DNA of 13,427 nucleotides from a virus (lineage: Duplodnaviria > Heunggongvirae > Uroviricota > Caudoviricetes). Within the stretch, counting starts at the first letter, position 1; each line of letters begins with the position of its first letter. Positions 2,976-8,116 of this stretch are shown here, in pieces. The translations under genes and the position numbers were made by a program. Under the pieces are notes generated by a model, which was given only the letters and a program-made list of their open reading frames with translations, was not told the DNA's origin and made no database searches. The stretch lies in the IMG/VR virus record IMGVR_UViG_3300021142_000006; one strand, written 5' to 3'.

Positions 2976-3068
2976 TTTATTAAAAAAATGGATAGGCTAT
3001 TAACCAAAAAGTATTTCTTTTGTATGACTTTTACTTAATATTAAACTATTTATATAAAACTAATAAAC

Positions 3069-3239
3069 ATGAGAAAGAAACTTAACGAAAACGAAAAGAA
3101 ACAACCCATTAGCATTAAAGTTGACCCTATCCTATTTGATGAACTGAACAAGATTAAAAACAAATCTAAATACATTGAATATCTAATATATCAAGATATG
3201 AAAAATAAAAATGTTATTAAACAAGATATAATATTATGA
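3069..3239 (+). CDS. small ribbon-helix-helix-like DNA-binding protein (56 aa; not in ORF track)
   Basis: MRKKLNENEKKQPISIKVDPILFDELNKIKNKSKYIEYLIYQDMKNKNVIKQDIIL; ISIKV strand + helix + NKSKYIE helix; ATGA overlap with the next gene. Confidence 0.7.
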   Translation: MRKKLNENEKKQPISIKVDPILFDELNKIKNKSKYIEYLIYQDMKNKNVIKQDIIL

Positions 3240-3868
3240 TATGTACTAAATGTGCTGTGGATCAACCAGCTAATTCTTTTTATAGAAAAAAATCTTCAAG
3301 TACTGGGTATTCAAAAATTTGTAAGTCCTGTGAATTGGCAGGTAAGAGAGAATATTATAAAGCAAATAAGATTGATATTCTTGAAAAGCAAAAAAAAGAT
3401 AATAACCGAAAAGAATACATGCGTAATTATATGCGTGAGAAACACCCACGTAAAACCGAACGAAGAGTAAGGTTTAGATTTGAATATGATGGTGCTCCGA
3501 ACTCATCAAAATATATTTCAGCCAGACGAAAAGTTGATCCTCTATTTAGGTTTAAATTAAATATAAAAGATAGTGTACGGAAAGCATTAAAAAAGAACGG
3601 ATATAAAAAGAATAGTAAAACTTTTGATATAATTGGTTGTACCTTTGAGGAATTCAAAACACATATTGAATCTCTTTGGGAATCATGGATGACCTGGGAG
3701 AATTACGGTTTATATAAAAAGGGGGAATATAATGTCGGTTGGGATATTGATCACATTGAACCTCTTTCCTCGGCTATAAATGAAGAAGGTGTAATAGCTT
3801 TAAACCATTACACCAATCTTCAACCCTTATGCTCTAAGGTAAATCGTGATGAAAAGAAAGCAAATTAA
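3236..3868 (+). CDS. HNH-type (homing-like) endonuclease with N-terminal Zn finger (210 aa)
   Basis: CTKC...CKSC, basic linker, WENYG...WDIDHIEPL...HYTNLQPL...N motif. Confidence 0.8.
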   Translation: MICTKCAVDQPANSFYRKKSSSTGYSKICKSCELAGKREYYKANKIDILEKQKKDNNRKEYMRNYMREKHPRKTERRVRFRFEYDGAPNSSKYISARRKVDPLFRFKLNIKDSVRKALKKNGYKKNSKTFDIIGCTFEEFKTHIESLWESWMTWENYGLYKKGEYNVGWDIDHIEPLSSAINEEGVIALNHYTNLQPLCSKVNRDEKKAN

Positions 3869-3876
3869 CATTCTTA

Positions 3877-4563
3877 TTAACTTTCGGCAACCAATAAGGT
3901 TCGGTACTCTTCCTCGGTCAAATGCCTCGGTTCGCAAAATCTATTTTCCTTTGGCTTAACCAATATGCAATCACCTTGTCGGATAATCTTTTCAATGTTG
4001 TCCTTCTCAATATTCACTTGCATTGTCCATGCAATGGCTTGTATGGCATTTACCATTTTTGGGGTGAAATAAGCAAAGTTTAAATAACCTTTGTTTACAT
4101 CATAATTTGTTCGGTACACATCTTGAATATCAACCCATATCATGTATTGTCTATCGGTAGATGTATCTTTGAACTTCACAAAATGACAAGGTTGCATTTT
4201 CTGCCAATCTTTTAACCCCTCACTAAGATATTCGCCTGAAACCTCAAACAATTCATAGGTATCATCAAAGGTAACAGTTTCCAATTCACCCTTTGAATTT
4301 ATCCATGTTGTTTTTTTCTTAATTGTTTGTCGGTCAATTAATTCTGGCTGAATTTGCTCAACCAACCTTTCCAAACCTAAACATAACATACCAACTCGTC
4401 TATGTTCAAGGTTTTCAAACTTTGCAATCTCGGCAAAGGTCATGGGCTTAATATCATTCCAAAATTCAGCCAAACTTGGAAAAGGACATTCAGTATGCTT
4501 TAGTTTAAGCAATCGGCAACCCTCATCATAAGGGAAAGTTATATTATCTATTACAATTTTCAT
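3877..4563 (-). CDS. DUF6745-like protein (228 aa) with C-terminal RQGD motif
   Basis: EN.EHRR..M..LG.ER, D.ST.RQY..WV, A.QAIAWT motifs recalled from DUF6745-type proteins. Confidence 0.6.
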   Translation of the reverse strand: MKIVIDNITFPYDEGCRLLKLKHTECPFPSLAEFWNDIKPMTFAEIAKFENLEHRRVGMLCLGLERLVEQIQPELIDRQTIKKKTTWINSKGELETVTFDDTYELFEVSGEYLSEGLKDWQKMQPCHFVKFKDTSTDRQYMIWVDIQDVYRTNYDVNKGYLNFAYFTPKMVNAIQAIAWTMQVNIEKDNIEKIIRQGDCILVKPKENRFCEPRHLTEEEYRTLLVAES

Positions 4564-4577
4564 ATATATTTGTTGTT

Positions 4578-5228
4578 TTAATCTTTTTTGAAAACAGTTA
4601 CATTATAGTCAATGGATATTGTTAATTCGTTACCTTGCAAAGTTAATTCAGCAGTATCGGCATGGTTATCAATTTGTGTGCTAAAGGTAAACCAATCCTC
4701 TAATTCACCATCTAATTCGTCTTTAGGTTCAAAGGTACGGACAAAATCCCATAACTTATCTTCAAGGTCTTTAAGCATGGCTTCTTCTTCATCGGTCATA
4801 ATGAAATCATGCTTAAAGTTAGTGGTTACAGAGCCATCACCGCCATTAATATTATTCACATGCTCGGCAAGGAATTTGGCTTCTTCTTCAGTCAAAGTAT
4901 ATATTGTTTCTTCTGTACCGCTTTCACTATACTCATATTCGGTATCTTTGGAAAAGGTGAAATCGTCTTCCTCGTCATTCAGTTGAACATTAACTGTGCC
5001 GCTTTCACCGTTATAGTGTCCATCGGAATTTACATAAAATTCCACATCATTATAAACTCGTTCATCAAGGTAATCCTTAATCACATCATCTTTTATCACT
5101 TCACCCTCTTTGTCAAGCAATTCCCATTCGGTATTGCCCATGCTATCACCGCCACAAGAAAAAATAAAGTTAGCTTGTTCTATGCCCTTTTCTTTCCATA
5201 GGGCTATTACTGTTTCTAAGTTTTTCAT
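4578..5228 (-). CDS. DUF6878-like very acidic protein (216 aa)
   Basis: FSCGGDSMG and NSDGHYNGESGTV motifs; GGDS/GGDG-like motif occurs twice. Confidence 0.55.
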   Translation of the reverse strand: MKNLETVIALWKEKGIEQANFIFSCGGDSMGNTEWELLDKEGEVIKDDVIKDYLDERVYNDVEFYVNSDGHYNGESGTVNVQLNDEEDDFTFSKDTEYEYSESGTEETIYTLTEEEAKFLAEHVNNINGGDGSVTTNFKHDFIMTDEEEAMLKDLEDKLWDFVRTFEPKDELDGELEDWFTFSTQIDNHADTAELTLQGNELTISIDYNVTVFKKD

Positions 5229-5235
5229 TATTTTG

Positions 5236-5631
5236 TTATTGTTTTATTGTTTCCAAAAATTGTTCCGCAATCTTAATACTCTCAGGATTATCAATTACCT
5301 TAACCCCATTGTGCATCCAAGGCTGTAATACCATGTGCTGTAAATAGTCCTGTGGTGTTGGGATAAACTTTCCTCTAAAATCCTCGGCAATGTGCAACAT
5401 GGCAATATCTACCGTATCAACACTTTTACCATCAGAATTGACAATATTGTAGCCAAATATCTTAGGTATGATAGTGTAGGCAAACCATGTGTTATGGGTT
5501 AGCATACGACTTGAATTGTTATTCATAGCCACCTTTGGGCTGTCAAGTAAAATATGAATATCCATGTAATCAGATATTTTACCACCAAATCTTTTAACGC
5601 TGGATTTTGCGTGAATTTCAGGATTTGCCAT
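5236..5631 (-). CDS. DUF6915-like His-rich protein (131 aa)
   Basis: MANP.IHA.SS.KRFGG...DY..IH...D, R..TH, H..ED....IPT..DYL pattern. Confidence 0.7.
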   Translation of the reverse strand: MANPEIHAKSSVKRFGGKISDYMDIHILLDSPKVAMNNNSSRMLTHNTWFAYTIIPKIFGYNIVNSDGKSVDTVDIAMLHIAEDFRGKFIPTPQDYLQHMVLQPWMHNGVKVIDNPESIKIAEQFLETIKQ

Positions 5632-5668
5632 TGTTGTTTTGTTTTGCTTTGGTTAAAGAAAGAATTTG

Positions 5669-5932
5669 TTAATCCCAAATAGTTGAAACAGTTTGTTTGA
5701 ATGGGTTATACTCAACTTGTCTGCCCATACTCCAATTACCTTTTTCAACCTTTAAGGTATTGTGTTCGGCAAATTTGCCATTGGGTTCTTCGTGTCTTAG
5801 CTGACTGTCCTCGTTAACAGTAACCTCGCTAAAATGTGTGTGGTCATCGGCAACATTAATGTTACCATACAATGTGTGCATGTTAGCACCTTCCCCTTTT
5901 AGGATAGTGTGTTGTTTTTTGTTTTTTTTCAT
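5669..5932 (-). CDS. small beta-rich His-containing partner of DUF6745-like genes (87 aa)
   Basis: GEG...H, L.HE, H..L...G.W...RQ.EY.P.....D pattern. Confidence 0.65.
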   Translation of the reverse strand: MKKNKKQHTILKGEGANMHTLYGNINVADDHTHFSEVTVNEDSQLRHEEPNGKFAEHNTLKVEKGNWSMGRQVEYNPFKQTVSTIWD

Positions 5933-5952
5933 TTTGAATGATTTAGTTTTAG

Positions 5953-5983
5953 CAAAGGTAATAATTAGTTTTGAAATAACAAA
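5953..5983 (-). promoter_or_regulatory. Bacteroidota-type promoter P8 (drives the four-gene module)
   Basis: TTTG-N19-TACCTTTG. Confidence 0.75.
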
Positions 5984-5989
5984 TAAAAA

Positions 5990-6015
5990 AACACATATTT
6001 CTAAAAATATGTGTT
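5990..6015. promoter_or_regulatory. 26-bp palindrome AACACATATTT-CTAA-AAATATGTGTT (candidate operator; AT-rich terminator is the alternative)
   Basis: perfect 11-bp inverted repeat; 23/26 identical to 12140-12165. Confidence 0.5.
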
Positions 6016-6247
6016 ATAGGTGTGTTGAATAACCACAATTAAGACATTCTATATAAGGTTTACCACCGTTCTGTTGCTGTTGTACTGAAAGAATAACCCA
6101 GGATCCACAATCACAATCAGGACAATTTGATTCAGGTAAACGTTCCTCCAATGTGGGCAATTGTTTTTGGTTTGGGTAAACGTGAGCAATAACTTTATCA
6201 GCTGGTATTTCTTTTAGTACGGATTGGAAAAATCTTGGCTTAGTCAT
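6014..6247 (-). CDS. Zn-ribbon protein (77 aa)
   Basis: CPDC and CLNC pairs. Confidence 0.75.
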   Translation of the reverse strand: MTKPRFFQSVLKEIPADKVIAHVYPNQKQLPTLEERLPESNCPDCDCGSWVILSVQQQQNGGKPYIECLNCGYSTHL

Positions 6248-7130
6248 GTTGTTTTGTTTTTACAAAGGTAAGGAATTTTTTCTCACCAACAACTTTTTTA
6301 ACACTAAATTTATCCCTGTTCTTCATTTTATTTAAAAAGTTTGTGGCTTCCTTTTCATTAATAAAGCTTTTGCCTCCAGTTAAATTATAGGAATAATGAA
6401 ATCCAGTCCTTGTATTTTTAATGAAACTAAAGTTTTCTCCATATGCCAGTACGTAATATTCGTTTACCGTCACCGTAACCTTATCATTATTCCTATTAAT
6501 CTTATTGATTTTGTTTAAGTTTACCTTTTTATCCATAAAACCCTGCATCCCACTTTGCTTTAGGAAAATGTTGAATTTCGAACCGTAGTACTCCCTGTAT
6601 TCTTTAATCGTATTAACCAATTGTTCAGTTGAACTGAACCAAACGTCAGGCTTAATTTCCAAACCTTTGTCGGTAATATCTGTATCTTTCCACCTGTATA
6701 CATATAAACAAATAGATACTCCGTTCGCCTTCAATTCCTCAATTGTCATTGCATTCTTAATAGCATTCTTATAGAAAGCTTTGTATTGAGAAAATGTTGT
6801 ATTCCTTGTACCTTTACCGTACATAGCTACAGCAACATGATACCCCCAGTGCTTATCGTTATACTCCCAACCTTCACCATATTTTTTGGTATCATCTTCA
6901 CATCTCTCAATTGTCTTCAACCTGTACTCATCGATATTTTGCAACAATTCATTATTGTTGGCAATGATATTCATACCGTTAGTGTGGGCATAGCTGTTAC
7001 ACCAATCCCTCGCTCTACGCCTGTCGTTACGACCCTCATAGACATTGTTATCTCCCTGTAATATGAAAGGTATAACATGATTGTCATCCACCTTTATGAA
7101 TTGTCGGTTATATAAAATTGTAAAAGACAT
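6240..7130 (-). CDS. hypothetical phage protein (296 aa)
   Basis: long ORF; C-terminus runs through promoter P9. Confidence 0.85.
   Translation of the reverse strand: MSFTILYNRQFIKVDDNHVIPFILQGDNNVYEGRNDRRRARDWCNSYAHTNGMNIIANNNELLQNIDEYRLKTIERCEDDTKKYGEGWEYNDKHWGYHVAVAMYGKGTRNTTFSQYKAFYKNAIKNAMTIEELKANGVSICLYVYRWKDTDITDKGLEIKPDVWFSSTEQLVNTIKEYREYYGSKFNIFLKQSGMQGFMDKKVNLNKINKINRNNDKVTVTVNEYYVLAYGENFSFIKNTRTGFHYSYNLTGGKSFINEKEATNFLNKMKNRDKFSVKKVVGEKKFLTFVKTKQHD
6263..6293 (-). promoter_or_regulatory. Bacteroidota-type promoter P9 inside the 3' end of the 296-aa CDS
   Basis: GTTG-N19-TACCTTTG + AAAAACAAAACAAC leader to ATG 6247. Confidence 0.65.
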
Positions 7131-7135
7131 GTTGA

Positions 7136-7345
7136 TTATATTTTAGTTAAGGTATCCAAATAAATTATTTCATAGTTTATACAAACATATTCACGTTCAT
7201 CCATTTCACTATCCAACCAAACTTTTGCCTTACCAAAAGGTACGTTATTAATATTAATAACCACATCTTGTCCACCATTGTCCGTGTATGACAATTCTTC
7301 GTAGGCTTTAAAAGGTACATTAGTATCTTCCGTTATTTTTTTCAT
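7136..7345 (-). CDS. hypothetical protein (69 aa)
   Basis: ATG follows P10 leader. Confidence 0.8.
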   Translation of the reverse strand: MKKITEDTNVPFKAYEELSYTDNGGQDVVININNVPFGKAKVWLDSEMDEREYVCINYEIIYLDTLTKI

Positions 7346-7361
7346 AGTTGTTTTGTTTCTG

Positions 7362-7393
7362 CAAAGATAAGTAATAGTATTTAAATCACCAAA
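7362..7393 (-). promoter_or_regulatory. Bacteroidota-type promoter P10
   Basis: TTTG-N20-TATCTTTG + leader. Confidence 0.85.
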
Positions 7394-7398
7394 TTTTT

Positions 7399-7568
7399 TT
7401 AAGAATTATTTAGATCCAAACCAGGAATAGTTTTTATTTCAACCAAACCAAAAAATAGATCGTCACCCTTCACCTTATCAATTAATTGTTTTCTACTATG
7501 TTTAAGAATTTCATAATCGGTCTTATTATCATCAACTGTTACAAGTACCTGTAAGTTTATCTTTCCAT
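7399..7568 (-). pseudogene. startless/frameshifted small CDS (..KINLQVLVTVDDNKTDYEILK...LDLNNS)
   Basis: 56-codon protein-like open frame 7569-7399 whose stop abuts P10; the nearest ATG (7568) is one base out of frame. Confidence 0.5.
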
Positions 7569-8042
7569 ATTAGGATCATACTCATGATTAATCTTTTTCC
7601 AAACTAATAAAAAATTAGGATTATATTTCTTATCACACTTGGTACATGAACCTTTACGAGTACTTAAACTCAATCGCAATCTTTTAAATTCATGTCCATT
7701 GGGGCAAGTACCGATATAGTTAGGTGTTGGTTTGGGTAAATCGCTACTGTAACAACGGTCACCGTTACAACCAATTTCCCTTGCTTTCATCCTCCAGTAA
7801 CTATCATGCCCATGTTTATGTCCAACCAGTGCATGGGCAATCTCATGCAATATTGTATCTTTTACCTGAAATTCATCGTTCAGTTGAACCAAATGTTTGG
7901 ATAAGGTAATCTTTTTCCATGTGTAATTACATCCTCCAAAACGTCTTTTAGCATTGTCAAACTCAAACTGCCAACCATTATCAATAAGGTTGTGTTTGTT
8001 CATTAATTCAATTGCCAGTTGTTCCGCTTTAACTAAATCCAT
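7557..8042 (-). CDS. SprT-like zinc metalloprotease (161 aa)
   Basis: TILHEIAH, HGHD..W...A.EIG, RRFGGC motif, C-terminal CPNGH/CTKC Zn ribbon; start trimmed from 8075. Confidence 0.9.
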   Translation of the reverse strand: MDLVKAEQLAIELMNKHNLIDNGWQFEFDNAKRRFGGCNYTWKKITLSKHLVQLNDEFQVKDTILHEIAHALVGHKHGHDSYWRMKAREIGCNGDRCYSSDLPKPTPNYIGTCPNGHEFKRLRLSLSTRKGSCTKCDKKYNPNFLLVWKKINHEYDPNMER

Positions 8043-8061
8043 TGTCGTTATTTTGTTTATG

Positions 8062-8092
8062 CAAAGAAACAACAACTTTTTTAATTTCCAAA
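8062..8092 (-). promoter_or_regulatory. variant promoter P11
   Basis: TTTG-N19-TTTCTTTG (TA->TT) + leader. Confidence 0.55.
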
Positions 8093-8116
8093 CAAATAAA
8101 CATATATTTGTTTTTG

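Follow-up and report, generated by a model that had tools for sequence, protein, structure and literature searches.

What do four small, tightly packed phage genes do when three of the families they represent are catalogued only as domains of unknown function (DUFs) and the fourth is uncatalogued? The question is raised by positions 3877-5932 of a 13,427-nt stretch of IMG/VR virus record IMGVR_UViG_3300021142_000006 (Caudoviricetes), the whole of which we refer to as the window. On the minus strand, this unit carries four open reading frames (ORFs) packed head-to-tail that encode, in order of transcription, proteins of 87, 131, 216, and 228 amino acids (aa), with intergenic gaps of 37, 7, and 14 nt from 5' to 3' (Table 1); relatives of these proteins are referred to here as 87-type, 228-type, and so on. 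An initial annotation, made from the sequence alone, had proposed that the genes form a conserved multi-component system, and neighborhood analysis bears this out: the four-gene module recurs in well over a hundred other uncultured phages, the families co-occur far beyond close relatives, and fused forms exist. A full-text literature search, covering 8.4 million papers, found no paper that names the DUF6915, DUF6878, or DUF6745 families, to which that annotation had likened the three larger proteins.

The evidence for co-occurrence comes from two sets of loci, the first consisting of 60 viral loci from a scan with the DUF6915 protein of the window, nearly all of which proved by tblastn to have the complete gene set, and the second of 80 further viral loci from a distant subgroup of 228-type proteins. 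Co-occurrence was counted from iterated searches, with the count limited to loci flanked by 2.5 kb or more of sequence on each side. The full set of four was found in 54 of the 57 loci in clade 1, to which the window belongs, and in 58 of the 59 in clade 2, a distant phage clade, with many of these loci being near-duplicates, such that the distinct sequences number ~34 and ~60, respectively. The order of the genes in clade 1 is 87-131-216-228 (46 loci), 228-87-131-216 (4 loci), or 131-216-228-87 (4 loci), while all 58 four-gene loci of clade 2 have the order 131-acidic-228-87, and the orders of the two clades are cyclic permutations of each other. The genes flanking the module differ both between and within clades, and in one locus (L014) a homing HNH gene is inserted within the module with all members retained. 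The 228-type proteins of the clades bridged by the module share only ~25-30% identity, and mean pairwise identity differs among the four families, at 74% for the 131-aa, 57% for the 87-aa, 52% for the 228-aa, and 38% for the 216-aa protein. The acidic protein of clade 2 (pI 4.25) occupies the same slot as the 216-aa protein and bears the motifs WEGGGDSGW and YGSWAGEF; HMMER found no link between it and the 216-aa family, and hhalign aligned the two over 183 columns with an E value of 0.013 (controls, 0.08-0.39).

Fusions and partial loci provide a view of how the module is built. Three representative clusters of ~445-453 aa bear a 228-type domain at the C-terminus. One of these (P0213) is encoded identically in two separate assemblies, its gene coming immediately after one of the 87-type, and is matched by the 216-aa profile as well (E 1.4e-7); a second (P0165) has a weak match to that profile (E 3e-4), and no 216-type match was detected in the third (P0157). 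The C-terminal part of the 216-aa protein is retained in the forms fused to the 228-type protein, and such natural fusions suggest that the proteins associate physically. The genes of DUF6915 and the acidic protein (pair A) stand alone in three clade-1 loci (L049, L051, and L054), and the 228-type and 87-type genes (pair B) do so in several distant loci (e.g., L073, L071, and L082). Because each pair occurs alone, and DUF6915 occurs without the other three families, the module is made up of two older gene pairs, A (DUF6915 plus acidic protein) and B (DUF6745-like protein plus 87-type protein), joined through the acidic protein. In a 251-kb relative (L060:6001-6392; G004:C1:172776-173170), the DUF6915 gene is split over two frames with its three partners intact, which reflects either a frameshift or an assembly error.

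The arrangement of signals around the unit agrees with what had been proposed from the sequence, namely that the four genes follow a single promoter with none between them. The motif TTTG-N17-23-TAnnTTTG was found by pattern search 19 times in the window against 1.66 expected, and one copy, at 5953-5983(-), lies directly 5' of the ATG of the 87-aa gene. It is the sole match on the minus strand between 2975 and 7362, and there are no copies within 3877-5932. Sigma-A promoters of Bacteroidota hosts have a -33/-7 consensus, and the promoter of the unit is of this host sigma-A type. The hairpin on its upstream side is probably the intrinsic terminator of a preceding unit encoding 69-, 296-, and 77-aa proteins, and its U tract extends into the -33 box of the four-gene promoter, while the downstream hairpin lies 60 nt past the stop codon of the 228-aa gene, inside the 3' end of a convergent HNH gene. 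Given one promoter upstream, none internally, and hairpins on both flanks, the four genes are best understood as being transcribed together, as a single unit. The unit had also been set apart from the single-gene cassettes around it; its multi-gene character holds, but it is not unique in the window, since the 69/296/77-aa unit (7345->6014) likewise has no internal promoter match. Pieces of the four-gene unit are present at ≥99% identity in four lake metatranscriptome runs, a weak signal for which DNA carry-over is possible. The runs were picked using stretch 3000-8100, of which the contigs cover only 3526-5928; the contigs cannot rank genes, and the uncovered parts are uninformative. These fragments fit with expression of the unit, without proof.

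The 131-aa protein is clearly a full-length member of DUF6915, as it matches Pfam PF21866 over positions 1-102 of 102 (E 2.7e-29, 101.8 bits against a cut-off of 27) as well as phrog_8143, and the DUF6915-like label given to it from the sequence was well founded. Its AlphaFold model is helical (predicted local distance difference test [pLDDT] 83) and matches DUF6915 clusters of AFDB with a template modeling (TM) score of 0.73-0.76 and a probability of 1.0, along with an Atlas cluster in which 92% of the members are DUF6915 (TM 0.75); its fold matches are other DUF6915 models only. Near-invariant positions in 109 distinct DUF6915 sequences are H7, S10, S11, G17, Y22, H26, D30, K33, R42, H46, G60, H80, E83, D84, and W105. 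The spaced H/H/D/H/H/ED residues that had been noticed in the window protein are thus a real pattern, with H7, H26, D30, H46, H80, E83, and D84 kept in 105-108 of the 109 relatives, plasmid and cultured-phage copies included, and this His/Asp/Glu set looks like a metal site. A fold search of the Protein Data Bank (PDB) with the model gave nothing usable, the best match being helical noise at Z 5.5 (archaeal virus coat proteins and colicins). Matches to HD-type folds reached Z 3.6 and 3.2, values that lie within the helical background, and the adjacent His-Asp doublet of the HD superfamily is absent from the invariant residues. Membership of the HD superfamily is unsupported for this protein, given the missing doublet and the weak fold match, and the likeness is an analogy only.

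The acidic partner of DUF6915 is harder to place. The extreme acidity ascribed to the 216-aa protein is a property of its whole family, which has a mean pI of 4.12 and 25% D+E, and the family alignment contains the N-terminal motifs F.CGGDSM and SDGHY.GE.G. The DUF6878-like label was the weakest of those proposed. Pfam DUF6878 (PF21798) has no match at E≤0.1 in 28 216-type relatives nor at E≤0.01 in 10 clade-2 equivalents (38 proteins in all), and its model found no match in four related phage contigs, whereas on two plasmid proteins adjoining DUF6915 it scored 76.9 and 183.1 bits. When the 216-aa family profile was compared with two Pfam-confirmed DUF6878 proteins by hhalign, E values of 4.5e-3 (70 columns) and 1.5e-3 (25 columns) were obtained, against E≥0.14 for eight unrelated neighbor proteins used as controls, and the alignment is centered on the motifs G.GDSG and N.(D/E)G.Y. 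An Atlas feature search also led to a DUF6878 cluster (score 0.84), and the 216-aa gene adjoins the DUF6915 gene of the window across the 7-nt gap just as the plasmid DUF6878 genes lie beside DUF6915. Based on the weak profile scores, the acidity, and the adjacency to DUF6915, the protein can be called a distant relative of DUF6878 at most, one that carries an additional C-terminal part. The only Pfam hint, a weak one, among the 216-type relatives is to the PhiKZ_gp91 vertex-binding protein (3 of 28 relatives, E 0.072), and nothing was matched by the family profile in PDB or by the protein in PHROGs.

For the 228-aa protein, the DUF6745-like label holds at the level of fold and fails at the Pfam threshold. 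The window protein scores 15 bits against Pfam DUF6745 (PF20530; E 0.016), under the cut-off of 27, and 8 of 26 relatives match the profile, with a best E value of 1.8e-5. Residues ~35-180 of its model (pLDDT 89.6) match several DUF6745 clusters of AFDB with Foldseek probabilities of 0.98-1.0 and TM scores of 0.25-0.33 by query, and rows 4 and 6 of the Atlas results for the model carry DUF6745. By its predicted fold, where the relationship is clear, the protein is a distant DUF6745 relative, although it falls short of the threshold by sequence. The model also shows an N-terminal hairpin specific to this protein and, at the C-terminus, a small beta domain whose RQGD turn is invariant, and the positions near-invariant in 112 distinct 228-type proteins are N51, E53, R55, R56, K83, D101, Y103, T134, T136, R138, Y140, R195-D198, Y220, and E227. 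A search of 1.84 billion representatives with the family profile recovered 395 representative clusters, although 46 distant 228-type proteins, once aligned, proved too diverse to be used in scanning loci. Foldseek found no match to the model in PDB at E≤1e-3, and the best VIA-align match was Z 5.0 on 59 residues; neither the 228- nor the 131-aa model has a convincing match to a solved structure. There was likewise no match by tblastn for three 228-type and one 87-type protein in 50,697 GenBank phages or for the window 228-aa protein in 72,556 plasmids, PHROGs has nothing for this protein, and DUF6745 is present in only 2 of 401 Bacteroidota genomes.

The 87-aa protein lies outside all catalogued families, its family having no Pfam, PHROG, or PDB match in sequence and profile searches. 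It has 725 relatives at E≤1e-3, its motifs are GEG..QHTLYG, L.HE.P, EH, and QVEYNPF, and its gene adjoins the 228-type gene in several clades. Near-invariant in 106 distinct 87-type proteins are G13, E14, G15, E56, H57, Q72, E74, N76, P77, and D87. The three spaced His motifs that had been pointed out are present in the protein, but E56-H57 alone is conserved in every clade. A cupin-type beta barrel with His/Glu metal motifs is one candidate fold for the protein, and the RQGD strand of the 228-aa protein might complete such a barrel. A search for longer proteins that might be fusions returned a single doubtful one of 174 aa. Taken over the four proteins, profile searches with hidden Markov models recovered the families named in the initial annotation unevenly: PF21866 was found outright, PF20530 was below threshold in the window protein, PF21798 had no match, and the small protein belongs to no family.

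DUF6915 is not confined to the four-gene module. It is found on 208 plasmids, 114 of which are typed as conjugative, mostly in the Roseobacter group. On pDSHI01 and a Sphingomonas plasmid, the two that were examined, the DUF6915 gene is immediately preceded by a DUF6878 gene confirmed by Pfam, and this pair A is found beside genes for DUF736, SSB, and YspA-SLOG. Leading regions of plasmids are reported to be enriched in anti-defense genes (PMC11541004), and DUF736 is listed among the leading-region families (supplement of PMC11541004). Cultured phages encode DUF6915 as well (Tsamsa gp184, phiM12 gp145, and Streptomyces phage LukeCage gp136), with none of the other three families within 4 kb in those examined. 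The gene after DUF6915 in phiM12 (gp146), LukeCage (gp137, pI 4.07), and a metagenome-assembled genome (MAG) of Proteobacteria is of another family with the motif W.QYTP.FNDGE.C.F, and the partners of DUF6915 may be of more than one kind; the neighbors of the distant DUF6915 in this Proteobacteria MAG are unrelated to the 216- and 228-aa families. In a Saccharibacteria MAG (L067:5986-6495), a 169-aa DUF6915 protein is encoded between the rpsP (S16) and khpA genes, a housekeeping-like setting in which no partner was detected. A DUF6915 homolog of 45% identity is also present in a 642-kb uncultured phage (LR756502.1:342098-342463), which has, in addition, a stretch 73% identical to part of the window HNH gene.

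For the module as a whole, we infer metal binding, complex formation, and a biological role, and the role that we tentatively favor, at somewhat less than an even chance, is that of an early-acting establishment or counter-defense (host-takeover) device built on a metal-dependent protein. This reading draws on the host-type promoter, the plasmid context of pair A, the combination of a conserved core with a fast-evolving acidic partner, and the lack of housekeeping homology. In such a device, the four genes would form one early transcription unit encoding a four-protein module that acts soon after DNA entry. Pair A would comprise DUF6915, which has an invariant set of four His, Asp, and Glu-Asp and is most likely a metal-dependent hydrolase, and its fast-evolving, very acidic DUF6878-like partner, and pair B would comprise the DUF6745-like protein with its C-terminal RQGD beta domain and the small, putative His/Glu beta protein. 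The acidic protein would physically tie pair A to pair B, as suggested by its natural fusion to the DUF6745-like protein, with the conserved metalloprotein supplying the chemistry and the variable acidic protein supplying targeting or mimicry. A fuller version of this scheme, which we consider possible but doubtful, is a four-protein, metal-dependent counter-defense or establishment machine, its folds without counterpart among solved structures, whose core pair is common to phages and the early-entering regions of conjugative plasmids and whose second pair was recruited in aquatic phages via the acidic adaptor. Several points weigh against an establishment or counter-defense role. Neither sequence nor fold links any member of the module to a known family of anti-defense proteins, nucleases, mimics, or hydrolases; DUF6915 reaches no more than Z 3.6 against HD-type folds; DUF6915 stands alone in the Saccharibacteria chromosome, between rpsP and khpA; and a leading-region position of pair A on plasmids is only plausible. 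The module is also often found beside genes of DNA and nucleotide metabolism, which fits a metabolic role equally well.

The last of these points leads to the main rival explanation, in which the module serves DNA or nucleotide metabolism as an accessory enzyme complex, for example in metal-dependent base or nucleotide modification or in control of the deoxynucleoside triphosphate (dNTP) pool. In more than 45 loci of clade 2, the module is followed by genes for a superfamily 2 (SF2) helicase, a uracil-DNA glycosylase (UDG)-superfamily protein, and a MoxR ATPase; thymidylate synthase (ThyA) and ribonucleotide reductase (RNR) genes are nearby in L070; a NUDIX gene comes directly after the module in L072; and DUF6915 lies near a DNA ligase in Tsamsa and near a phosphoesterase in phiM12. 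The invariant His/Asp/Glu sets in two of the proteins would suit an enzyme as well. However, these flanks are not conserved between clades, pair A on plasmids has no such neighbors, a very acidic, fast-evolving partner is unusual for a subunit of a metabolic enzyme, and no nucleotide-binding family was detected; we regard this explanation as rather unlikely. It is improbable, in our estimate, that the acidic protein of pair A serves to neutralize DUF6915, as the inhibitor of an enzyme or the antidote of a toxin, while pair B acts as a second, separate pair, the four genes traveling together rather than forming one machine. The strict adjacency of two small genes, one conserved and the other acidic and variable, is what such a pair would look like, each pair does stand alone in some loci, and the acidic protein encoded after DUF6915 in cultured phages is of a different family; yet the partner of the acidic protein in the fusion is the DUF6745-like protein of pair B, not DUF6915, the four-gene set survives permutations of order in two distant clades, and DUF6915 is also found without a recognizable partner.

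The linkage could also reflect inherited synteny with no functional coupling, as two phage clades account for most of the loci and near-duplicates are numerous. This explanation is already disfavored, and very improbable, in light of a set that is kept while its order is permuted, flanks that differ, the existence of fusions, the homing HNH gene that sits inside the module in one locus with no member lost, and a module that bridges clades so divergent in their 228-type proteins. To the idea that these are virion, assembly, or other structural proteins we give almost no credence: the PhiKZ_gp91 hint for the acidic protein would favor it, but the promoter is of the host type expected for early genes, none of the clades examined has structural genes in the vicinity, and pair A is present on plasmids. 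Returning to the establishment or counter-defense reading, its confirmation would imply a new mechanism common to phages and plasmids with two or more new folds, and a metabolic role would still imply a new metal-enzyme family. In either case, the abundance of the module in freshwater phages, the presence of the core pair on more than 200 plasmids, the 74% versus 38% identity of neighboring genes, and the fusions argue for a functional system rather than genomic filler.

Table 1. Positions of the features of the four-gene unit, its surroundings in the window, and genes of a second family found after DUF6915
Feature	Position	Strand	Basis
87-aa gene	5669..5932	-	ORF
131-aa DUF6915 gene	5236..5631	-	ORF
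216-aa very acidic protein gene	4578..5228	-	ORF
228-aa DUF6745-like protein gene	3877..4563	-	ORF
Promoter-like site, Bacteroidota type, TTTG-N-TAccTTTG, ahead of 87-aa gene	5953..5983	-	Pattern search
Hairpin + U tract, upstream of unit	5990..6015	-	RNA fold: 11-bp stem + U7, dG -9.4 kcal/mol, z -3.97
Terminator-like hairpin, downstream of unit	3788..3814	-	Scan + fold: 12-bp stem, z -4.69 for 102-nt stretch
Promoter of 69/296/77-aa unit	7362-7393		Pattern search
HNH/endonuclease VII-like gene, convergent to unit	3236-3868	+	phrog_1035, E 1.4e-16
SprT-like metalloprotease-family protein	7557-8075		Pfam E 4.3e-12; phrog_1006 E 9.6e-46
W.QYTP.FNDGE.C.F-family genes	L164:4373-5005, L165:4442-4942, L066:6392-6904		Motif

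The surroundings of the unit provide some information about the phage itself. Relatives of the module are found on IMG/VR contigs as long as 333 kb, of which two are rated 92-100% complete at 288-321 kb, as well as on short contigs binned into Bacteroidota MAGs, and DNA identical to the window is found in many freshwater metagenomes. Together with the promoter type, these contigs, bins, and identities indicate that the window belongs to a large freshwater phage of Bacteroidota. In the second multi-gene unit of the window, the 77-aa protein has zinc-ribbon-like cysteines (CxxC...CxxC) with weak IBR/GATA-like matches, and the 296-aa protein is without family assignment and has a relative in L061. 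Relatives of the window HNH gene occupy varying sites near the module in other phages, in the case of L014 between the DUF6915 and acidic genes, and such shifting positions are as expected of a mobile homing endonuclease. The SprT-like gene is also found near the module in several relatives, at differing distances and orientations.

Each of the larger proteins can be set against a known system. DUF6745 as defined in Pfam (PF20530) is often the C-terminal domain of leucine-rich repeat (LRR) proteins in Cyanobacteriota and Bacteroidota, whereas the 228-aa protein of the window is free-standing, with no LRRs. Pair A most closely recalls the DUF6878-DUF6915 pair of Dinoroseobacter shibae pDSHI01 (DSHI_RS18660/18655), where an acidic protein with G.GDSG and N.(D/E)G.Y likewise adjoins DUF6915. 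The order of the two genes is reversed relative to the window, however, and the phage acidic protein is ~90 aa longer, with the extra C-terminal part; unlike its plasmid counterpart, it fails the Pfam DUF6878 threshold and is linked to two further genes. The HD-domain phosphohydrolases, such as the HD-GYP protein Bd1817 (PDB 3tm8), resemble DUF6915 in being all-helical with His/Asp ligand candidates across successive helices, but they possess the HD doublet, while H26 and D30 of DUF6915 are four residues apart, and the fold match to 3tm8 is weak (Z 3.6, root mean square deviation 3.0, 70 residues aligned). Finally, the 216-aa protein shares with Ocr and ArdA, the acidic DNA-mimic anti-restriction proteins, a very low pI (~4.1), an early expression context, and, through its related family, an occurrence on conjugative plasmids. 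It differs from them in having no sequence match, and its conserved Cys/Asp/Ser/His/Glu motifs, taken from the alignment, are more suggestive of a specific site than of simple mimicry by charge.

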